DNA of 7,873 bases from a virus (taxonomy: Duplodnaviria > Heunggongvirae > Uroviricota > Caudoviricetes), in IMG/VR virus record IMGVR_UViG_2671180770_000001, positions 1 to 7,873 of that record; one strand, given 5' to 3'. Below are positions 1-7,873 of this stretch, piece after piece. Under the pieces are notes generated by a model. It ran no database searches, was not told the DNA's origin, and saw only the letters and a list, made by a program, of their open reading frames with translations. The translations under genes were made by a program, and so were the position numbers. Positions within the stretch are counted from its first letter, which is position 1; each line of letters opens with the position of its first letter.

Positions 1-100
1 CCCCATCCGCCAGCACCGACATGATTCTGCTGGTGAAATCCACCATCACCACCAGAAACAGCAGGAGTGCAGCCACAGCCAGGCGCAGTTTTACCGTCAC
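1..100 (-). CDS. Partial small hydrophobic (predicted membrane) protein; N-terminal 33 codons only, continues beyond the window start
   Basis: GTG at 100..98 overlaps the TGA stop of the upstream TerB-like gene (GTGA), with GGAG about 8 nt upstream. The frame stays open to position 1 and reads MTVKLRLAVAALLLFLVVMVDFTSRIMSVLADG, with a hydrophobic stretch of about 20 residues. Not in the ORF track because it is truncated. Confidence 0.4.
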   Translation of the reverse strand, partial: MTVKLRLAVAALLLFLVVMVDFTSRIMSVLADG

Positions 101-528
101 TGGTGATTCTCCAGACGAAGACCCAGAACACCGGCAATCTCTTCCAGCACCTTGCGCTCTTCCGGCTCAATTTCGCCGTCTGCCTCCGCAATGGCCACCG
201 CCACATCCAGCACATCTTCCGCTTCACGCGTATCGTGTTTCACATCTTCAATTTCACGCAATGCCGCTCGACGACCAATTTTAAAGTTCGTATCCAGCTG
301 ACCGATAATGGTTGCGCTAATCGCATTAATTTCTGACGTAAACGCGGACAACGCAGGCTGGTTACGCAAGACCTGCTCGATCTTCGCTTTCTCTGAAGCC
401 TCACATTCACCATCTGCATAGGCCACCAGATAGGCAGCATTAATAACCGCCTGTGCCAGATCACGTTTCTCAAACTTTTTAATTTCCACTGCCGCTCGGC
501 GGGCTTTTTTACCAAAAATACCAAACAT
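97..528 (-). CDS. TerB-family (tellurite-resistance TerB-like fold) protein, 143 aa
   Basis: The track ORF 97..600 is trimmed to the internal ATG at 528, which has AAAGGAA 8 nt upstream. The protein carries two copies of the acidic ADG-x5-E-x3-(L/I) motif (AYADGECEASEKAKIEQVL and AEADGEIEPEERKVLEEIAGVLGL) that I associate with the TerB / DjlA N-terminal fold. Family assignment is from motif recognition, not a search. Confidence 0.75.
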   Translation of the reverse strand: MFGIFGKKARRAAVEIKKFEKRDLAQAVINAAYLVAYADGECEASEKAKIEQVLRNQPALSAFTSEINAISATIIGQLDTNFKIGRRAALREIEDVKHDTREAEDVLDVAVAIAEADGEIEPEERKVLEEIAGVLGLRLENHQ

Positions 529-658
529 CGTGACGTTCCTTTGGGTGGGTGAGCCAACGCCCGGGAGCGATCTGCCCACAGAGAAAGTCACACTGACCAC
601 TCCGTAAGCTCACCCCCGAAAGGCTCTGTGGTTGATATGCGCCGGGCGTGGCGCAGAT

Positions 659-685
659 ACAAAAAAAGCCCGCCGAAGCGAGCCT
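659..685 (-). terminator. Rho-independent terminator immediately downstream of the tRNA cluster
   Basis: On the minus-sense RNA: GCUCGC-UUCG-GCGGGC hairpin (6 bp including one G.U, UUCG tetraloop) followed by UUUUUUUGU (plus strand 659..667 is acaaaaaaa). Confidence 0.55.
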
Positions 686-696
686 GATAATAAATC

Positions 697-771
697 TGGA
701 GCGGGTAGCGGGAATCGAACCCGCATCATCAGCCTGGAAGGCTGAGGTAATAGCCATTATACGGTACCCGC
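697..771 (-). tRNA. tRNA-Gly, anticodon UCC
   Basis: Reverse complement folds as a cloverleaf: perfect 7-bp acceptor stem GCGGGTA/TACCCGC, anticodon arm TCAGC-CTTCCAG-GCTGA, T arm GCGGG-TTCGATT-CCCGC, encoded CCA. Resembles the E. coli glyT type. Confidence 0.85.
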
Positions 772-774
772 ATA

Positions 775-850
775 TGGTGCCGGCTACCGGAATCGAACTG
801 GCGACCTGATGATTACAAGTCAGTTGCTCTACCATTGGAGCTAAACCAGC
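775..850 (-). tRNA. tRNA-Thr-like, anticodon UGU; degenerate stems, possibly impaired
   Basis: Reverse complement GCTGGTTTAGCTCCAATGGTAGAGCAACTGACTTGTAATCATCAGGTCGCCAGTTCGATTCCGGTAGCCGGCACCA. D arm GCTC/GAGC, anticodon loop CTTGTAA, T loop TTCGATT, discriminator A and CCA fit a thrU-like tRNA. The acceptor stem has two G.U pairs, the anticodon stem two mismatches and the T stem one mismatch. Confidence 0.6.
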
Positions 851-855
851 ATGTT

Positions 856-930
856 TGGCGGGACAGCGTGGACTCGAACCACGATAAGAAGGTTAACAGC
901 CTTCCGTAATGACCTTTATACGACTGACCC
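856..930 (-). tRNA. tRNA-Asn-like, anticodon GUU
   Basis: Reverse complement GGGTCAGTCGTATAAAGGTCATTACGGAAGGCTGTTAACCTTCTTATCGTGGTTCGAGTCCACGCTGTCCCGCCA. Perfect anticodon stem GAAGG/CCTTC with loop CTGTTAA, perfect T arm CGTGG-TTCGAGT-CCACG, encoded CCA. One U.U mismatch in the acceptor stem. Unlike the host-type tRNA-Asn I remember, so probably phage-type. Confidence 0.7.
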
Positions 931-984
931 AAATAAAAAAAGCCACCGTTGCAACTTAAGAGTCACTAACGGCAGCTTACATCT

Positions 985-1497
985 TTAAACGGTATGATAT
1001 TTCATTCTGGCTGCCTCAAAAGCCGCAGCGGCAAGTTCGGCAGTGTCATGGTATCCAAGGTTAATACACTTTCCAGACGCATTAATTCTTGCTCTCCATT
1101 TCCCGTACTTAGCATCCCAAGACACGCCACGGTATCCAGATTTATTATTCTTCTGAATTTTCCTGTTTTGCATATTTTCGGAATGAGTGACAAGACGAAG
1201 ATTTGATATCCGGTTATCTGTTCTTACCCTGTTGATGTGATCAATAAAACCATCTGGCATGGTGCCATAAACAATCAACCATGCCAGTCTGTGAGCAGGG
1301 TATGCTTTACCATTAATCATAATCATTAAATACCCATCAGAATTTATTGATGAGCATTTCTTGAAAGCAAAACGAGAGTTCCATGTCAAAGTGGTCCTCT
1401 CTCTCCCCTGCCTCCACCTCCAGTGAAAGTCGCCTGATGATGGATTGTAATCAACAACAGAAAGCACCATTTCTGGCGTTAATTTTATTTCTTTCAT
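985..1497 (-). CDS. HNH homing endonuclease with C-terminal AP2-like DNA-binding domain, 170 aa
   Basis: ATG at 1497 with AAGG upstream, stop TAA at 985..987. HNH-type motif region GFIDHINRVRTDNRISNLRLVTHSENMQNR; AP2-like segment GYRGVSWDAKYGKWRARINASGKCINLGYHDTAELAAAAFEAARMKYH. Codon usage is visibly AT-richer than the neighbouring genes. Confidence 0.8.
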   Translation of the reverse strand: MKEIKLTPEMVLSVVDYNPSSGDFHWRWRQGRERTTLTWNSRFAFKKCSSINSDGYLMIMINGKAYPAHRLAWLIVYGTMPDGFIDHINRVRTDNRISNLRLVTHSENMQNRKIQKNNKSGYRGVSWDAKYGKWRARINASGKCINLGYHDTAELAAAAFEAARMKYHTV

Positions 1498-1615
1498 CGC
1501 TTTACCTTAGGGATAGAGCCTGTTCGCGTAGATATGACAGCCAAGAGCGGAGCGATGTTTCCACCACCATATCTCAGGCCCATATCACTAAGACTCTTGT
1601 TTTGATTGCACGCGA

Positions 1616-1644
1616 ATGCAAAAAAGCCCACAGGAGGTGGGCTT
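1616..1644 (-). terminator. tR'-like rho-independent terminator of the short late leader transcript
   Basis: Minus-sense AAGCCCAC-CUCCU-GUGGGCUU (8-bp stem) followed by UUUUUGC. It lies about 45 nt downstream of the putative pR' -10 element. Confidence 0.7.
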
Positions 1645-1684
1645 GTGATGGTTGCTGAATGCAAAAGCAGCAGCATATGTGAAT

Positions 1685-1714
1685 ATTATGGCTAAATGGC
1701 TAATTGCATGTCAA
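1685..1714 (-). promoter_or_regulatory. pR'-like late promoter (putative -35 and -10; qut expected to overlap)
   Basis: Minus-sense TTGACA (1714..1709), 18-nt spacer, CATAAT (1690..1685). The -35 lies in the last codons of the Q-like gene and the -10 directly after its stop, the position pR' occupies in lambdoid phages. Confidence 0.45.
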
Positions 1715-2210
1715 GGCTTTTAACAGCAACATGCTTAACTTTCTCAACACGTTTACGCATTTTGAAAGCATTTTGCATTGGTTGGTACAAAACAAATAAT
1801 GACGCTTTCAGGATATCGTCAATTTCGTTTCTACAGGTTGCCAGTGAAGGTTTTCTCCATCCCTCGCCACCGCGTCCACACATCTTGCGTGGCTTTGCAG
1901 TCGCGTGATAGTAGGATGCAATTGCTCTCTTAGATGAACCATGAGCGTAGTAGCTGAGGAGGATGCCAAAGGCTTTCTTGTCAATGTACATGACGGAATC
2001 GACGACCTGAGAAATCAACATTCCATCATCATCATTGCACATTGGTCTTGTCATAACTCTTCCCGGCTCTACGCTCTCCATGAACTTCGCTATTACGCTG
2101 CTCATGCGCTTTTCCAGACGACCTGAATAAACCCATGCGCCCCACAGTTCAAGCCAGCCATTCAGCCAATCGTGCTGTTCTTTGGTGAGGTTTAGTTCTC
2201 TTATGCCCAT
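1692..2210 (-). CDS. Q: Late-gene antitermination protein Q (Q-family, not the lambda Q type), 172 aa
   Basis: ATG at 2210 with AAGGGAG upstream. Sits between ninG and the pR'/tR' pair. N-terminal WLELWGAWV motif resembles the ERWGAWA motif of Q proteins from other lambdoid prophages. Confidence 0.7.
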   Translation of the reverse strand: MGIRELNLTKEQHDWLNGWLELWGAWVYSGRLEKRMSSVIAKFMESVEPGRVMTRPMCNDDDGMLISQVVDSVMYIDKKAFGILLSYYAHGSSKRAIASYYHATAKPRKMCGRGGEGWRKPSLATCRNEIDDILKASLFVLYQPMQNAFKMRKRVEKVKHVAVKSLDMQLAI

Positions 2211-2253
2211 GCGACTTCTCCCTTGTTATCTGGAATGGTTTTTACTGAGAGCG

Positions 2254-2859
2254 TCATGCGGCCTCACTTCTGCTGTTTCGCAGGTCTTTGAGTTTCTGTT
2301 GGTACTCTGCCTTGATGGCCCTGCACTCTTCGACAGTCCAGCGATGGCGGTTATGGTTTGATTCGATTTCGTCTACTGCTTCCTGCCCGATGCGGTTAAT
2401 CAGTTCGACGCGATACGGAACGAGATTTCCGCTTTTGTGCTGGTTGCACACCACGCATTGCTTGTGAATATTGCGTTCATCAAATCGGAGTTGAGGCGCC
2501 GCAGCAGTTGTCCGGTAATGTCCGGCATCCCACTGAGCAGACGTGAGCGTTCCGCACGAGATACATGGTAAGTCGCGGTCTCTTTCTCTGATGAAGGCGT
2601 TTACGGCTTGTTGGGCTTGTTTAATCCAGTAACTGCGGGGCTTTAAGGCGAGTTTTCGAATCTTAATTTTATCTTTCTGTTTCTGCTCCTCTCGTCGTCG
2701 TTTCTTCTCTGCTGTTTTTTCCGCCTTTTCGCGTTCTTTATTTCGTCGTTCGAGCGCTAATTTAGTTCCGTGTTCCGGGCTGCACCACCACTGATTTGAG
2801 AATGCCGGGTGAAACCATTCCTTACAGATTTTGCATTTCCTTCGCGCTGGTTTAGCCAT
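2254..2859 (-). CDS. ninG: NinG (Rap) recombination-associated protein, 201 aa
   Basis: Translation ([39 protein letters not shown]...[30 protein letters not shown]) is nearly identical to lambda NinG as I recall it. GGGGAGG upstream of the ATG; the start overlaps the upstream stop (TAATG). Confidence 0.93.
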
Positions 2860-3587
2860 TAAGCAGCCTCCCCTGTTACTTTAAGCATTCCGTTATCTAG
2901 CAGCTTTCTTGTCAGCCACTGTTGACCACGCCCGGTGATTTTTGTGGTGAACGATATCTGTATTCCGTGATTTGTGTTGACCGCTGTTTCTTTCACTGTG
3001 AAATAGCCACGATCCATATATTCCTGCATTGGCACATTGCGCCGGGAGCCTGAAGCAATAAGGATTTTGTGATCGCGCATCCACGCAAACAGTTTGTTTG
3101 GACCAATACCAACAACCTTTGCAAAGTTTCCAATCAAAATTCTGCTGGACTCGCCAACGCGATCGGCAAACTCAACTTTAGGTGCTGCGAGAGCAAGCTG
3201 TTTCTCCAGTTCAGCCTTCTGGCCTTCAAGGTCGGCCGCAAGGCGCAATGCCTCAGAAAAGGTTTGTGGTATTTTCGCGGTTGCCCCTTCGAGTTCTCGC
3301 CAGCGGTCAACAAGGCGAGCGGTGAATTCCGGCGACAACTGGGCAACGACAATAATGCTGTCGCGCTTACCTTGTTCGCCCTCAAAAACGTAAGCCTCTA
3401 CGCCACGAAGTAATCCTAAGTTATTGATTTTTTCGAAAACCACCATTGGGGGATTTCGGATCACACCTCGAACCGCCAGTCGTTCAATGGATTGTTTCAC
3501 CTTGTCATGACGACTTCCCACCAACTCAGCGATTTCAATGCTTGTCATTTTGATGACGTTGCTATTTATCAGCTCGTTCATTGTCAT
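2859..3587 (-). CDS. Rha-type N-terminal / KilAC (ANT) C-terminal antirepressor-like DNA-binding protein (Roi-like), 242 aa
   Basis: ATG at 3587 with GAGAGGA upstream. N-terminus ...[24 protein letters not shown]... resembles the Rha family; the C-terminal half resembles the phage antirepressor KilAC domain. Translationally coupled to ninG. Confidence 0.7.
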
Positions 3588-3610
3588 GTCCTCTCATATT
3601 GAAAATTCAG

Positions 3611-3638
3611 CAATAAAAAACCCAGCCGAAGCTGGGTT
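3611..3638 (-). terminator. Rho-independent terminator between the ORF6N gene and the Rha-like gene
   Basis: Minus-sense AACCCAGC-UUCG-GCUGGGUU (8-bp stem, UUCG tetraloop) followed by UUUUUUAUUG. Confidence 0.7.
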
Positions 3639-3655
3639 TGTTAAGTTGTCAATTG

Positions 3656-4342
3656 TCAGTAGCGATGCAGTGAAGGCGGCAACTCTTTGTTCTTAAGCCT
3701 TTCCCATGCCAGAAGGTTCGTCGGCCCGTCAGGCTCATAAATATCTATATCCCGCGTGTGATTAATTAAAACGCCCCTCGCCCTCCCGATGATATACGAG
3801 AACTCATAGCCGTAGTCGTGGCATATGCCGGAATAGCCAGACTGAATCAGTTTTAATGCGGGATACAACTCACGGAACAATGCCTGTGAGCGGTTGGCAT
3901 AATCCCATAGCCATACAAGGCTGTCTGTTTCTTTTGCGGAAAGCCCGTTGGGCTTCTTCTCTTGTTTGCCAGTATTTTTCTCGCACTGGCTGAAATAGCA
4001 GTCTTCCAATTTTTCGAACACTTCCCACGCCTGATCGGTTTCTAGCATTTTTGCGTGGCGGGCTGCGCCTCGTTCTGTCCAGAGGATGAGCGAGCGGGTT
4101 TTGGGAGAGATTTTCACCTCATTTTGCGACTCGTTTAAAACTAGTCGCAAATTTCTGAGTTCATCACCAACAGCTTTAAAGAAGTGCTTTCCCTCAATAA
4201 ACCGAGATTTATTTTCATGGTGATTCTGCTGTATACGGATTGTTTCTGTTCCATAAAGGCGGGCAAGCAACTCAGTTGTGATTACCGGAATCTGGTTATA
4301 GGTAACAGGGGAAAGGTTTTTGACAGAGATTTGAACAGTCAT
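3656..4342 (-). CDS. ORF6N (KilA-N-like) domain protein with uncharacterised C-terminal domain, 228 aa
   Basis: ATG at 4342 with GAGG 7 nt upstream. The N-terminal ~120 aa contain [16 protein letters not shown] and [31 protein letters not shown], matching the ORF6N pattern (FxEGKHYF ... LWTExG). The C-terminal ~100 aa are not recognisable to me. Confidence 0.7.
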
Positions 4343-4383
4343 AACGACCTCGCGTTTCGATAATTTTTACCTCACCACCTTTA

Positions 4384-4474
4384 GGTGCTAATCATCGTGG
4401 TGGCGAACTGTGCGGGGTTAGCACTACCGGTCGAAACATCCGGCGAGCCTTTCGGCTCCCCCACACAGCCCGCC
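4384..4474 (-). promoter_or_regulatory. Candidate structured RNA / regulatory element upstream of the ORF6N gene
   Basis: Arms 4402..4417 and 4459..4474 form a 16-bp stem in minus-sense RNA (13 Watson-Crick plus 3 G.U); the same three positions are A.C or C.A mismatches on the plus strand. It encloses a GAGCC-GAAA-GGCUC hairpin (GNRA loop, 4445..4458) and a CCGG/CCGG hairpin (4427..4443). GGTGCTAATC at 4384..4393 recurs at 4549..4558, with an inverted copy of GTGCTAA at 4418..4424. Confidence 0.3.
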
Positions 4475-4503
4475 ATAAATCGCGAATGTGACTGTGCTTA
4501 GCG

Positions 4504-4527
4504 CATAAAAAAACCGCCAGCGCGGTT
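4504..4527 (-). terminator. Candidate rho-independent terminator downstream of ninE (tR3/tR4-like)
   Basis: Minus-sense AACCGC-GCUG-GCGGUU (6-bp stem) followed by UUUUUUUAU. Confidence 0.5.
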
Positions 4528-4617
4528 ATGCACCGTTTCGATATCCGGGGTGCTAATCCCGACGCCAGATTTTGCTGGCGTGCGAGGAATATAGCCCCGA
4601 ATAAATCATCGCGTCAA

Positions 4618-4800
4618 TCACCTTGTTTTCCTCGCACGATGTCTTAGCCACCGGATATCCCACAGATGAGCCGTGTAATTGAAGGTTTTTACGTCAGATT
4701 CTTTTGGGATTGGCTTGCGTTTATTTCTGGAGCGTTTCGTTGGAAGGTATTTGCAGTTTTCGCAGATGATGTCGGTGAAACTTCGTCGCTGTCGCCTCAT
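4618..4800 (-). CDS. ninE: NinE, 60 aa
   Basis: Internal ATG at 4800 of track ORF 4618..4890, overlapping the Dam stop (ATGA). Translation [60 protein letters not shown] matches lambda NinE as I recall it. Confidence 0.85.
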
Positions 4801-5324
4801 GCCGCCCTCCTGACGCCCTGCCCGATCGCCATCAATGCCGCTTTGGATACGGTAGTAAACATCCGTCGAGGACTGATGAACGGTCGCCAAATCAGCAGCA
4901 TGGAGCCTTTACTGTTTCCCTTCTTCTCCAGCCCTGTCGATGGTTCGATAAAATTAATCCGTCCATCAGTGATAATGCGAACTTCGTCGACACTCTCCAG
5001 AGCCTTGCTGAACCATCCGACTGACATATCCTCTGGCACAAGCATAACTACCGTCTGTCGCTGTTGTATGCACTGCTCAGCGGCTTTTTCCACCCACGGC
5101 CTGATATTGCTGTACGGTGGGTTATTCCAGATTGCACCGTGGCTTACCCACTCAGAATTGAGCGCGTCGTCGGCCTCAGTTAGCCAGTGAGCACACAGAG
5201 CATTTTTGTCGCTCGCTGCCGAATCCAGCCAGAATCCAAACTCAATATCCAGTGCATCAAAAAGCCAAAGCGGCGTTTGCCAGCAGTCCTTGTCGTGTGC
5301 TGGCGTATTTGATTTGATAGTCAT
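4797..5324 (-). CDS. Phage orphan DNA N6-adenine methyltransferase (Dam family), 175 aa
   Basis: N-terminal [11 protein letters not shown] and the catalytic NPPY motif ([14 protein letters not shown]). ATG overlaps the ninB stop (ATGA). It occupies the slot held by ninC in lambda. Confidence 0.85.
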
Positions 5325-5767
5325 GCAGCCCTACCTTTTCGTTGTGACCATTCATACTCTCGCCGGGAGTCATCACTCCACCGCACGTTGCGCTCTGAGC
5401 CGAACCAGAACATGATTTCGATAAGCTCAGTCATGCTGGCCTTCCGCATTTTTCTGGTACGCACGCCAAGCATGACAACGCCACCGTCGATACCAGGCAC
5501 ACTTCGTTGCTCCAGTTTTTTGGTCTTAAGCCACAGGGCAGTGAACAGGTCTTTCCAGTCTTCCGGCGCCAGCCGTTGACCATGCCATAGCACCTGACGC
5601 GAAACATCGTTCAGCATCGGCCACATGCGGTCATTCTGCGCTTTGCTGCGCCTGGGTTCTTTAACGTGGACTTCGTGGGGTGACTTGTCGTCGATGGGTA
5701 GTGAGAGAATGGCGTCTATGGCGTTATTTCTGATTGCTTCGTTGCGAAGCAGAAAGGCTTGCTTCAT
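5321..5767 (-). CDS. ninB: NinB (Orf-family recombination mediator), 148 aa
   Basis: Track ORF 5321..5869 trimmed to the ATG at 5767, which has GGAGAG upstream. The segment ...DRMWPMLNDVSRQVLWHGQRL...[19 protein letters not shown] is collinear with lambda NinB. Confidence 0.88.
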   Translation of the reverse strand: MKQAFLLRNEAIRNNAIDAILSLPIDDKSPHEVHVKEPRRSKAQNDRMWPMLNDVSRQVLWHGQRLAPEDWKDLFTALWLKTKKLEQRSVPGIDGGVVMLGVRTRKMRKASMTELIEIMFWFGSERNVRWSDDSRREYEWSQRKGRAA

Positions 5768-5960
5768 CTCCTGCTCTCCGGTTCCATTTTTCAGCCGCCG
5801 CAGCAACTGATGGTGCCCATGCCCCCCTGGCTTCACAGAGGTCACATTCTGCATAGCCCCACACATCAATATTTATTCCGGCCTCAACCCACAGACGAGC
5901 ATTACCGCCGCAAAACGGACATTCTTTTAGCTTTGGCTGGGTTAATGATAGGTCGCTCAT
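5724..5960 (-). CDS. Lar-family restriction-alleviation-like zinc-ribbon protein, 78 aa
   Basis: Internal ATG at 5960 of track ORF 5724..6167, with AGGAG upstream. CPFCGG...C..C zinc-ribbon motif (KLKECPFCGGNARLWVEAGINIDVWGYAECDLCEARGAW). The 3' end overlaps the ninB start by 44 nt in another frame. Confidence 0.55.
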   Translation of the reverse strand: MSDLSLTQPKLKECPFCGGNARLWVEAGINIDVWGYAECDLCEARGAWAPSVAAAAEKWNRRAGDEASLSASQRSNQK

Positions 5961-5970
5961 GCTCGCTCCT

Positions 5971-6186
5971 TCACTTAAAATCCAGACTCCGGATAATTCT
6001 GTTGCGCTGAAACTCATTGTTGAGTTTGAACAACCGTCGAAGAACACGGTCACGCGGATAGCGTCGTGCGGCAGGTGAATGCTCATACAACTCATCAAGC
6101 GGCAAACTGGACGATGAACGATACCGATACCAACGCACCAACTCTTCACGAAAATTAGCCCTGACAAGCTCAGCTATCGTACTCAT
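5971..6186 (-). CDS. Hypothetical small Arg-rich protein, 71 aa
   Basis: ATG at 6186 with GGAGG 9 nt upstream; first gene after the tR2-like terminator, stop 10 nt before the Lar-like start. No family recognised. Confidence 0.5.
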   Translation of the reverse strand: MSTIAELVRANFREELVRWYRYRSSSSLPLDELYEHSPAARRYPRDRVLRRLFKLNNEFQRNRIIRSLDFK

Positions 6187-6212
6187 TTCTTAAAGCCTCC
6201 AATTACTCTTCC

Positions 6213-6246
6213 TCAAATAAAAAGGCCTGCGATTACCAGCAGGCCT
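6213..6246 (-). terminator. tR2-like rho-independent terminator downstream of ren
   Basis: Minus-sense AGGCCUGC-n8-GCAGGCCU (8-bp stem) followed by UUUUAUUUGAGG. Position between ren and the nin genes matches lambda tR2. Confidence 0.7.
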
Positions 6247-6271
6247 GTTACAAGCTCAGTGATGTAGATGG

Positions 6272-6562
6272 TCATCTTTTAACTCCATATACCGCCAATA
6301 CCCGTTTCATCGCGGCACTCTGGCGACACTCCTTAAAAATCAGGTTCGTGCTCACCTTTCCTTCCCGTTCTTCCCTGGTAGCAAACCGGTAATACACCGT
6401 TCGCCAGACCTTACCATCAATGACAAGGATTCCTGCCCGCGCCATTTTAGCCGCAGCCTGATTTATACTGGTTACGGTTGCGCCTGTTAGCGCGGCAACG
6501 TCCGGCGCACAGAAGCTATTATGCGTCCCCAGGTAATGAATAATTGCCTCTTTGCCCGTCAT
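6272..6562 (-). CDS. ren: Ren (Rex-exclusion escape protein), 96 aa
   Basis: Translation MTGKEAIIHYLGTHNSFCAPDVAALTGATVTSINQAAAKMARAGILVIDGKVWRTVYYRFATREEREGK... is near-identical to lambda Ren as I recall it. ATG overlaps the P stop (ATGA). Confidence 0.9.
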   Translation of the reverse strand: MTGKEAIIHYLGTHNSFCAPDVAALTGATVTSINQAAAKMARAGILVIDGKVWRTVYYRFATREEREGKVSTNLIFKECRQSAAMKRVLAVYGVKR

Positions 6563-7260
6563 ACACTTGCTCCTTTCAGTCCGAACTTAGCTTTAATTTC
6601 TGCGATCTTCGCCAGAGCCTGAACATGATTTAGAGGTCTGCCGCCCATGACAGGAAGTTGTTTTACTGGTTCAGGAATCACCTCACCACGGTTAATTCTC
6701 GCAGTCATATGGACAAGCTCATCTGCGGCCTTGCGCCGTAATTCCGCGTCAGTCAGCGCATTGGCCCGCATGTTCTGGTACAGGTTGGTAACCAGCCAGT
6801 AGTGCGCGTTCGATTTCCACGGATAAGACTCTGCATCCGGATACAGGCCTCGCTTCCGGCAATACTCGTAAACCATATCAACCAGCTCGCTGACGTTTGG
6901 CAGTCCGGCGATAACGGATGCTTCTTCCCGGCACCATGCAACAAACTGCCCGGGTGATGGAAGAAATGGTCGATTCTGCCGACGGGCTACGCGCATTCCT
7001 GCGTTAACCTGTTCCATCGAGGTGATCCCGTTTTCCCGGAAAGCCAGAACCCACTGGCGGCGGATTTCATTCAGTTCGTTCTGGTCCCGGTTAGCCAGAC
7101 TCGCCGGGAAAGTTGCCAGTAACTGGCTGAACACACCGTTGATGATCTGCGCTACCTGTTGTACCTGCGGCTTTTCGTCGTACTGTTCCGGCATGTTGTT
7201 GGTGATCCGACGCATCTGCTCACGGTCAAAGTTAACCATCTGTGCGGCGATGTTTTTCAT
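6559..7260 (-). CDS. P: Replication protein P (DnaB helicase loader), 233 aa
   Basis: Translation MKNIAAQMVNFDREQMRRITNNMPEQYDEKPQVQQVAQIINGVFSQLLATFPASLANRDQNE... is near-identical to lambda P. ATG overlaps the O stop (ATGA). Confidence 0.95.
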   Translation of the reverse strand: MKNIAAQMVNFDREQMRRITNNMPEQYDEKPQVQQVAQIINGVFSQLLATFPASLANRDQNELNEIRRQWVLAFRENGITSMEQVNAGMRVARRQNRPFLPSPGQFVAWCREEASVIAGLPNVSELVDMVYEYCRKRGLYPDAESYPWKSNAHYWLVTNLYQNMRANALTDAELRRKAADELVHMTARINRGEVIPEPVKQLPVMGGRPLNHVQALAKIAEIKAKFGLKGASV

Positions 7261-7873
7261 AAATCCACCCCGTAAATCCAGTCAGTGTTTGTCAGGTCGA
7301 GTTTTGGTTTTCCAGCTGTCACGCCAGCCTGTTGCTTGTTACGGTTGATTTCGAGTTGGGTCCACTTGTCGCGGAGTTTGGCCGGACTTAGCACGTTACC
7401 GGACCAGAAGTTGTCCTGGCATGCCCAGCAGAACAGCACGCACATGTCGCGGTGGTTACGTCCGTCACGTTCACGCATCAGGCGGATATCGTTAGCCCAC
7501 CCTGCAAAATTCGGTTTTCTGGCTGATGGTGCGATGGTCTTCACCATGTCAAACATCCACTCTGCGGCGGTCAGGTCTTCTGCTGTTCCCCACTTGCTGC
7601 CGCTCTGAATTGCAGCATCCGGTTTAACCACAGAAAGATCGTTTTCTGGCTGGTCAGAGGATTCGCCAGAATTCTCGGACGAATAATCTTTTCTTTTTTC
7701 TTTTGTAATAGTGTCTTTTGTGTCCCCCTGTTTTGAGGGATAGCAATCCCCTAATTTGAGGGATGTTTTATCCCTCGTTTTAGGGGGGGTTCCCTCGTTT
7801 TGAGGGATGTCCCTCATTTTAGGGGAACCTCCCTCGTTTTGAGGGATGCACCATTCTGAGATGTTTTTATTTG
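7257..7873 (-). CDS. O: Replication initiator O, C-terminal ~205 codons; N-terminus lies beyond the window end
   Basis: The frame is open from 7873 down to the TGA at 7257..7259. Translation ...NKNISEWCIPQNEGGSPKMRDIPQNEGTPPKTRDKTSLKLGDCYPSKQGDTKDTITKEKRKDYSSENSGESSDQPENDLSVVKPD...TNTDWIYGVDL matches lambda O and contains the ori-encoded segment. Confidence 0.93.
   Translation of the reverse strand, partial: NKNISEWCIPQNEGGSPKMRDIPQNEGTPPKTRDKTSLKLGDCYPSKQGDTKDTITKEKRKDYSSENSGESSDQPENDLSVVKPDAAIQSGSKWGTAEDLTAAEWMFDMVKTIAPSARKPNFAGWANDIRLMRERDGRNHRDMCVLFCWACQDNFWSGNVLSPAKLRDKWTQLEINRNKQQAGVTAGKPKLDLTNTDWIYGVDL
7680..7846. repeat. ori-lambda-type replication origin: six iterons plus adjacent AT-rich region, inside the O reading frame
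   Basis: Six copies of the palindromic iteron TCCCTC-n4/5-GAGGGA at 7723..7740, 7747..7763, 7771..7787, 7791..7807, 7810..7826 and 7830..7846, spaced 19 to 24 bp. Flanked by the AT-rich stretch cgaataatcttttcttttttcttttgtaatagtgtcttttg (7680..7720). Confidence 0.85.

Follow-up and report, generated by a model that had tools for sequence, protein, structure and literature searches.

In the plasmid prophage P1, the immI region carries, in its annotated order, a promoter, two short sites called a1 and b1, the c4 RNA (77 nt), a second pair of sites, a2 and b2, and the genes icd and ant. In published accounts, c4 is cut by RNase P (PMC5320573) and blocks the ribosome-binding site through two segments, a' and b' (PMC5320573; PMC12197685). 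In the Salmonella prophage Gifsy-1, anrP is transcribed from the isrK promoter (Hershko-Shalev et al. 2016, PMC4825925). Its translation rises 139-fold when the short RNA IsrK is provided in trans, whereas IsrK mutated in a1 has no activity; a' mutants are constitutively high, and IsrK promotes prophage induction (PMC4825925). Lysogens of Gifsy-1 express IsrK and a processed RNA from further downstream, STnc1160, in every condition that was examined (PMC7067206). Here we analyze a 275-bp spacer (4343..4617) lying between ninE and an antirepressor gene in a 7,873-nt stretch of viral DNA (IMG/VR record IMGVR_UViG_2671180770_000001, positions 1 to 7,873), referred to below as the window. All window features described are on the minus strand, and descending coordinates follow that strand from 5' to 3'.

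We consider it highly probable that the spacer is an RNA immunity module of the P1 immI type, lodged in the nin region of a lambdoid phage and serving, most likely, to keep the antirepressor untranslated in the prophage. The element is real and functional, but it is already known from P1 and from Salmonella Gifsy-1, since it is a member of described families. When the window was scanned with the Rfam covariance models, taking the curated gathering score (GA) as criterion, three minus-strand families scored above it. The C4 antisense RNA model (RF01695) matched 4480..4396 over its full length (model positions 1-87) with 75.1 bits against a GA of 45 (E = 9.2e-14). Upstream of it, isrK (RF01394) matched 4581..4507 (model positions 1-77) with 75.8 bits against 50, and c4-a1b1 (RF03163) matched 4594..4542, 62 nt upstream of the C4 match, with 50.0 bits against 46.7; the last score is marginal but in line with those of P1 (51 bits) and Gifsy-1 (48.1 bits). 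The gene that follows C4 (3656..4342, 228 aa) is identified as an antirepressor gene by its Pfam domains (ORF6N and P22_AR_C), by its match to PHROG 377 'anti-repressor Ant' (E = 7.8e-84) and by the annotation 'ant' that its counterpart carries in Escherichia phage JLK-2012.

An initial annotation of the spacer, made from the sequence letters, had singled out a 16-bp stem, a GNRA-capped hairpin with a second small hairpin beside it, a 6-bp hairpin, a terminator and a repeated 10-mer, and had named three candidate identities: a small RNA, a riboregulatory leader of the ORF6N gene, or operator sites for a DNA-binding protein. The parts are all present and find their places in the families just named. 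The stem is the closing helix of C4 and the two hairpins beside it are C4 helices 2 and 3; the 6-bp hairpin (4563-4580) and the terminator are the first and last hairpins of IsrK; and the repeated 10-mer, GGTGCTAATC, is the a1/a2 target of the C4 junction segment a'. The first two candidates were both right and describe one system, with a C4 match and its target in the leader; the third did not hold, as set out below. Absent from that account were the promoter (4617..4588), the b sites by the ribosome-binding site, the membership of a described family, and a second 10-mer repeat, CGTTTCGATA, at 4353-4362 and 4534-4543, which is the b1/b2 target of the C4 loop segment b'. The repeat of GGTGCTAATC (4384-4393 and 4549-4558, with no further copy in the window) is weak evidence by itself: a 10-mer direct repeat turned up in 68 of 2000 dinucleotide shuffles (3.4%), much as the estimate of a few percent had suggested. 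Two separate 10-mer repeats were reached by at most 15 of the 2000 shuffles. The decisive evidence is comparative, and does not come from statistics within the window.

For this comparison, ten diverse relatives (APSE-7, Stx1 and Stx2 phages, and Actinobacillus, Yersinia and Klebsiella phages) were examined together with P1 and Gifsy-1. The initial annotation had proposed folding the RNA and searching homologues for compensatory changes, and both bore out its structure. The consensus of a 12-sequence C4 alignment equals the fold that had been drawn for the window, with 27 pairs and 98.8% of cells paired. Fourteen of the 27 pairs show compensatory changes, a count reached by none of 500 shuffles, and slid controls left 35-49% of cells paired. 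The closing stem joins 4402-4417 (GGCGAACTGTGCGGGG) to 4459-4474 (CCCCACACAGCCCGCC) and in minus-sense RNA, where 4474..4459 pairs with 4417..4402, all 16 positions are matched, 13 as Watson-Crick and three as G.U pairs; on the plus strand, the three G.U positions become A.C or C.A mismatches. This asymmetry had been put forward as an argument for a functional RNA read in gene direction. Across phages the argument gains force because several closing-stem pairs are kept as G.U in 7-11 of the 12 sequences, which identifies the minus-sense RNA as the conserved molecule. Helix 2 (4458..4445, GAGCC-GAAA-GGCUC) ends in a GNRA tetraloop and has compensatory changes in all five of its pairs across the 12 phages; helix 3 (4444..4426, GCCGG / CCGGU) encloses a 9-nt loop, AUGUUUCGA. 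Folded alone, 4474..4399 gives the expected C4 structure at -48.6 kcal/mol, and the minus-sense RNA folds more stably than shuffled sequences (z = -5.96) and more stably than the plus-sense RNA (z = -4.30).

The boundaries of C4 are likewise shared. AUGG is invariant at its 5' end in the 12 phages, at the place where the annotated mature P1 c4 begins. In register with the 77-nt P1 RNA, the mature C4 of the window is predicted to start at the G after AU and to span 4474..4399 (76 nt), with a cut by RNase P 5' of G4474 expected by homology with P1. Its closing stem is followed by ACC (4401..4399). An IMG/VR pattern scan returned 109 distinct matches, and among the 93 with an intact closing stem, which were used for counts, this three-base NCC tail is ACC in 84; the predicted 3' end would resemble the acceptor end of a tRNA. 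From the end of C4 to the start of the next gene there are 47-55 nt in 12 of 12 loci (54 nt in the window, 48 nt in P1). Within this interval, 15-17 nt after C4, lies a further, conserved element, GGUGGUGA (4372..4379), which can pair with the C4 3' arm and ACC tail (4406..4399). In the 12 phages, 97.9% of the cells of this alternative helix are paired and three of its eight pairs show compensatory changes; in the viral loci at least seven of the eight pairs form in 88 of 93 cases, as in TCGCCACC:GGTGGCGA and CCATCACC:GGTGATGG, with weak contrast to non-cognate controls. Formation of this helix would be in competition with the base of the closing stem, and a2 would come to lie in the loop of a hairpin; the helix may have to do with how the 3' end is formed or how the target is presented.

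The complementarity between C4 and its flanks carries most of the argument. In the window, a' (4418..4424, GUGCUAA) occupies the unpaired junction that links helix 3 to the closing stem's 3' arm, and b' (4431..4437, GUUUCGA) lies in the loop of helix 3. Complementary to a' are a1 (4550..4556, UUAGCAC in RNA), within the 10-mer copy 4549-4558, and a2 (4385..4391), within the copy 4384-4393 in the antirepressor leader; complementary to b' are b1 (4535..4541, UCGAAAC), within 4534-4543, and b2 (4354..4360, UCGAAAC), within 4353-4362. The initial annotation had noticed the inverted core TTAGCAC at 4418-4424 and proposed that it pairs with 4385-4391; this is the a':a2 interaction of the C4 system. 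The core of CGTTTCGATA is inverted in the same manner at 4431-4437, inside the loop of the second small hairpin. The b2 site ends two bases upstream of the Shine-Dalgarno sequence GAGG (4351..4348) and 11 nt before the AUG (4342..4340). Among phages the a' 7-mer varies, and yet its exact complement is found both upstream and downstream in 12 of 12 loci; b' has an exact complement in both flanks in 10 of the 12, the other two having one mismatch or G.U pair. The wider set of viral loci behaves alike. Of the 93 loci, 80 have exact complements of a', 7 nt or longer, on both sides, and a b2 of at least 7 nt, complementary to the loop, lies downstream in 82 of 93. All four sites reach at least 6 nt in 62 of the 93 cognate cases, against 0.08% of 5248 non-cognate pairings. 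These 93 loci comprise 34 variants of the junction segment, 59 of the loop segment and 73 a'/b' combinations, and in 61 of 84 loci 8-11 nt separate the end of b2 from the first ATG. We regard the three-way co-variation of a' and b' with both pairs of targets as the strongest point in favor of RNA-RNA pairing at this locus.

The same data bear on the idea that the 10-mers and the palindrome are DNA-level sites, operators for the ORF6N protein, for the Rha-like protein or for a phage repressor. The repeats do lie in direct orientation, about 165 and 181 bp apart, with inverted cores, and in P1 a C1 operator overlaps the upstream c4 promoter. The long stem, however, pairs fully only as minus-sense RNA (three G.U pairs where the other strand has three A.C mismatches), and its G.U pairs are conserved. 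Moreover, the repeat sequences change from phage to phage; what persists is the complementarity among the three sites, that is, the match of the targets to the C4 loop and junction, and its maintenance through 73 combinations is a signature of RNA-RNA pairing and not of a protein-binding motif. On account of the strand asymmetry and of target sequences that are themselves not conserved, we reject the operator reading, to which we assign next to no probability.

Upstream of C4, the spacer carries the signals for a short transcript of its own. A sigma-70 promoter starts directly after the stop codon of ninE, with a -35 box TTGACG (4617..4612), an 18-nt spacer and a -10 box TATATT (4593..4588), matching at 10 of 12 positions in the promoter scan; the -10 box ends 7 nt before the start of the isrK model. 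Across 12 phages the two hexamers are conserved, and they lie in register with the promoter annotated in phage P1 as P1c4/P51b. The IsrK-type RNA, equivalent to P1 a1b1, extends over 4581..4505 as delimited by the isrK and c4-a1b1 matches and by the terminator scan. It comprises hairpin 1 (4581..4562, compensatory changes in six of seven pairs), hairpin 2 (4561..4546) with a1 in its loop, a single-stranded b1, and an intrinsic terminator whose stem (4527..4512) is followed by a run of seven U (4511..4505); the scan thus agrees, on the minus strand, with the terminator of the initial annotation. Promoter and Rho-independent terminator together predict a transcript of ~77 nt. Binding of this RNA by Hfq, as the family title (isrK Hfq-binding RNA) has it, is putative. 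HnrS, a 66-nt small RNA of prophages in enterohemorrhagic Escherichia coli, was considered as a counterpart and set aside, its paper making no link to isrK or antirepressors and the expected size here being ~75 nt. As to the Rfam models themselves, c4-a1b1 and C4 share clan CL00128 and isrK has no clan, though isrK and c4-a1b1 overlap on one RNA. The c4-a1b1 match also takes in the -10 box and begins before the point where transcription is likely to start, in the window (4582-4594) as in P1 (locus L012 of our set, 318-330, where the -10 box lies at 319-324 and the match begins at 318), so that part of this model seems to score promoter conservation rather than RNA.

A terminator in this position invites a simpler account, namely that of a purely cis-acting leader: a transcription stop of the nin region, like lambda tR2-tR4, which makes the genes downstream rely on antitermination by N and involves no trans-acting RNA. 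Terminators are a feature of lambdoid phages in this part of the delayed-early operon, between ninE and Q, and the intrinsic terminator here is a good one. It makes up only ~20 nt of a conserved module of 275 nt, however, and a simple terminator has no role for the co-variation of a' and b' with two pairs of targets. The element has its own conserved promoter, and the module also occurs outside nin regions, in P1 immI, downstream of Q in Gifsy-1 next to cro in Stx2_95, and in APSE. Because of this promoter and these other genomic contexts we reject a plain nin terminator, which seems to us very unlikely.

Sequence signals and homologues together suggest the following course of events, with C4 as the repressor RNA. 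In the lysogen, the promoter just after ninE (4617..4588) would fire and yield a minus-strand transcript, most copies of which would end at the intrinsic terminator as an IsrK-type RNA of ~75 nt, with a1 in a hairpin loop and b1 single-stranded. Transcripts that read through, and those from PR that are antiterminated by N during lytic growth, would extend into C4. There, a processing by RNase P like that in P1 would release an RNA with a tRNA-like ACC tail, and its b' (GUUUCGA) and a' (GUGCUAA) would pair with b2 and a2 in the antirepressor leader. Since b2 abuts the Shine-Dalgarno sequence, we propose that binding of the 30S ribosomal subunit at the antirepressor start would be blocked, that the ORF6N/P22_AR_C protein would not be made and that the prophage repressor would therefore remain active; this step draws on the P1 work and on the position of b2 found here. 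The a1/b1 copy on IsrK most likely competes for a' and b', so that an excess of IsrK would relieve repression. This last part is suggested by the shared sites and by the trans-activation data from Gifsy-1, and is not secure. In this way the element would probably gate the antirepressor, and hence prophage induction, in a lambdoid phage of the Stx-phage group.

Evidence for the a1:a' pairing comes from Gifsy-1 itself. In its sequence (NC_010392; locus 34131-34329), isrK matches at 34316..34240 with 79.3 bits and C4 at 34214..34131 with 69 bits, alongside c4-a1b1 (48.1 bits). The Gifsy-1 'orf45' region, the source of the processed RNA STnc1160, is thus a C4-family RNA, and the published account treats it as a coding upstream open reading frame (uORF) (PMC4825925). 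Counted from the 5' end of IsrK, the pairs tested there, G28-C162 and G31-C159, fall on a1 (nt 26-32, UUGGCGU) and a' (nt 158-164, ACGCCAA); since these compensatory mutations (PMC4825925) map onto the two segments, a1:a' pairing is proved in the homologue.

The model published for Gifsy-1 interprets this pairing differently. There the read-through transcript is inactive, with its IsrK part paired in cis to the 'orf45' region; short IsrK, acting in trans, opens the structure, the uORF that begins at the AUG in the C4 5' arm is translated, and the antirepressor is made by translational coupling, with no separate repressor RNA. This model has behind it direct genetics and biochemistry in the homologous Gifsy-1 locus (PMC4825925), and all 12 phages keep the AUG at the 5' end of C4, which in the window heads a uORF of 31 codons (4476..4381). 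Across the 12 loci, however, uORF length runs from 8 to 64 codons, or the uORF is fused in frame to the downstream gene; P1 and APSE-7 are among the loci where it ends inside C4. In Gifsy-1 its stop overlaps the anrP start (AUGA); in the window 38 nt separate the stop from the ant AUG. The region is, besides, a C4 RNA whose structure shows strong covariation and whose end resembles that of a tRNA; Gifsy-1 has a stable processed RNA, STnc1160; and the conserved a2 and b2 downstream of C4, which co-vary with a' and b', go unused in the published model. The two schemes are compatible with each other. Because uORF length and frame are not conserved and the frame ends 38 nt before the AUG, we rank coupling of the Gifsy-1 kind lower for the window and judge it rather unlikely as the explanation here.

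A related idea is that the 31-codon frame is a small protein gene whose peptide is analogous to P1 Icd. The frame is present, its start codon is invariant, and a tagged ORF45 was detected in Gifsy-1 (PMC4825925). Against this, neither frame nor length is conserved, the substitutions track base-pairing and not codons, and the Gifsy-1 authors themselves report a conserved nucleotide but variable amino-acid sequence (PMC4825925). With frame and length varying, a conserved peptide is unlikely, and we have rejected this reading of the analogue of 'orf45' as highly improbable.

Several points weigh against repression by C4 as outlined here. Whatever function is ascribed to the window locus would be carried over from homologues. 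In P1, ant transcription is lost when translation of icd is repressed; with no icd-like gene between C4 and the antirepressor gene in the window, this step is not transferable as such. The coupling of Gifsy-1 is not transferable either, given where the window uORF ends. In Gifsy-1, moreover, basal anrP translation went up with the cis mutations G28A and G31A in a1 (PMC4825925, Table 1D). This is not what one would expect of a simple decoy, and the part of IsrK as a decoy is not settled; the Gifsy-1 authors explain the effect by alternative cis structures together with uORF translation (PMC4825925). Finally, each a or b duplex has only 7-8 bp, worth about -9 to -10.6 kcal/mol, and taken singly these energies are not clearly better than those of shuffled loops. 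As the duplexes are not individually significant, the argument for repression by C4 rests on their co-variation.

The module is widespread. Relatives of the spacer were found in 258 phage records and in 556 of 5426 complete E. coli genomes, at up to three places per genome, and in all ten related phages the isrK and C4 matches are about 25 nt apart. The closest relatives of the phage to which the element belongs are E. coli O55/O157-type phages. When 13 loci were compared (the window, the ten relatives, P1 and Gifsy-1), the a' segment ACGCCAA proved common to six (L002, L005, L007, L009, L010 and L013), with differing b' loops; specificity may sit mostly in b', or partial cross-talk between co-resident prophages may occur. 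In some viral contigs the isrK-C4-gene cassette is present in two or three tandem copies that recur every 656 nt or so (L067, 9739-11104; also L044 and L045). The a'/b' pair differs from one cassette to the next, the gene of ~120 codons that follows is almost the same each time (MATVPTSP.LKIEVVNGKAV...), and in these contigs annotatable open reading frames run through the RNAs.

The practical value of these observations lies mainly in annotation. In the best-matching E. coli RefSeq records nothing is annotated at the site of the IsrK and C4 RNAs, and in most phage records they are likewise unmarked. 'Hypothetical protein' coding sequences lie on or run through them in several deposited phage records (L003, 1998-2240; L005, 2140-2427; L006, 2098-2295; L008, 1844-2506; L010, 2074-2241), and such coding sequences are probably over-called. 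In a paper on APSE phage the two RNAs are annotated side by side and IsrK is treated separately.

As for the surroundings, the window is a segment of the early-right operon of a lambdoid phage, and its nearest phage record, Escherichia phage JLK-2012, is 96% identical across 88% of its length. Read along the minus strand, it encodes O-like and P-like replication proteins, ren, a Lar-like gene, ninB, a Dam methylase and ninE; after the spacer come the antirepressor gene, a Rha/KilAC 'roi'-type gene, ninG, Q, an HNH-AP2 gene, tRNA genes and a TerB-like gene. The HNH-AP2 gene (985-1497), between Q and the tRNAs, encodes an endonuclease with HNH_3 and AP2 domains. In the tRNA cluster downstream of it (697-930), Rfam places three tRNAs (700-771, 778-850 and 859-930) and ARAGORN only two, Gly-TCC and Asn-GTT; the middle match (49 bits) may be atypical or degenerate. 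The TerB-like 'tellurite resistance' gene (97-600) follows at the site where Stx phages would carry stx.

In P1 immI, where Rfam finds c4-a1b1 and C4, the parts come in the order seen in the window. Both loci have in succession, at very similar spacing, a sigma-70 promoter, a hairpin, a1, b1, a terminator-like hairpin (weak in P1), C4, a2, a GGUGG-type element, b2, a Shine-Dalgarno sequence and an AUG. The three-helix fold of C4, with b' in the loop of helix 3 and a' in the junction, is common to both, as are the G after an invariant AU at the mature 5' end and the ACC tail at the 3' end, and in both the regulated operon encodes an antirepressor. The differences are in specificity (a'/b' are CUGUCAA / CACUAAC in P1 and GUGCUAA / GUUUCGA in the window) and in setting, the P1 module residing in a plasmid prophage and that of the window in a lambdoid nin region. 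The window lacks icd and has its b2 directly at the ribosome-binding site of the antirepressor, which is of the ORF6N/P22_AR_C type (the type was read for the window only). No C1-type operator is evident at the window promoter, at which no test for one was aimed, whereas the P1 c4 promoter is overlapped by a C1 operator. The upstream terminator is stronger in the window than in P1, and a discrete IsrK-like RNA is therefore expected.

Phage P22 offers a parallel in outcome. Its sar is a small RNA that holds down the antirepressor gene ant in a temperate phage, and the window antirepressor carries the C-terminal domain of the P22 antirepressor. But sar is a true cis-antisense RNA, transcribed from the strand opposite its target, whereas C4 and its target share a strand, C4 lying upstream and using two short loops to pair. 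The CI RNA of satellite phage P4, with seqA and seqC, is described in the Gifsy-1 paper as a processed RNA flanked by complementary targets in one transcript (PMC4825925). By that description its targets lie upstream and downstream on the same transcript, as those of C4 do, and it differs in acting by premature transcription termination and not by occlusion of a ribosome-binding site.

Gifsy-1, too, is a close counterpart: it has the same three Rfam matches in the same order and spacing, together with the promoter, the three-hairpin IsrK, a2, GGUGGUGA, b2 and a Shine-Dalgarno sequence before an antirepressor-like gene. The Gifsy-1 module lies downstream of the Q-like gene antQ, that of the window upstream of ninG and Q, and the specificities differ (a' ACGCCAA and b' CGGUGAU in Gifsy-1). 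A text search of the Gifsy-1 paper (PMC4825925) found no 'phage P1', Citron, Rfam or RNase P, and the P1 c4 work is uncited there. In terms of homology, P1 'a1b1' is Salmonella IsrK and Gifsy-1 'orf45/STnc1160' is C4; no paper stating these equivalences was found in the searchable literature, and they become visible when Rfam is run on Gifsy-1. One can extend them to a two-RNA switch in which IsrK would titrate C4 and read-through of the terminator would set antirepressor synthesis, with a' and b' serving as an immunity code. We advance this larger reading as a tentative proposal, to which we would give somewhat less than an even chance. If it is true, the 73 a'/b' combinations in 93 loci, with a' shared and b' different among Stx-type phages, would form an RNA 'immunity code' that decides which lambdoid prophages living in one cell are able to keep one another's antirepressors down. 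The homology itself shows that the work on P1 c4 and that on Salmonella IsrK, published separately, deal with a single module, which has a bearing on the interpretation of the IsrK results.

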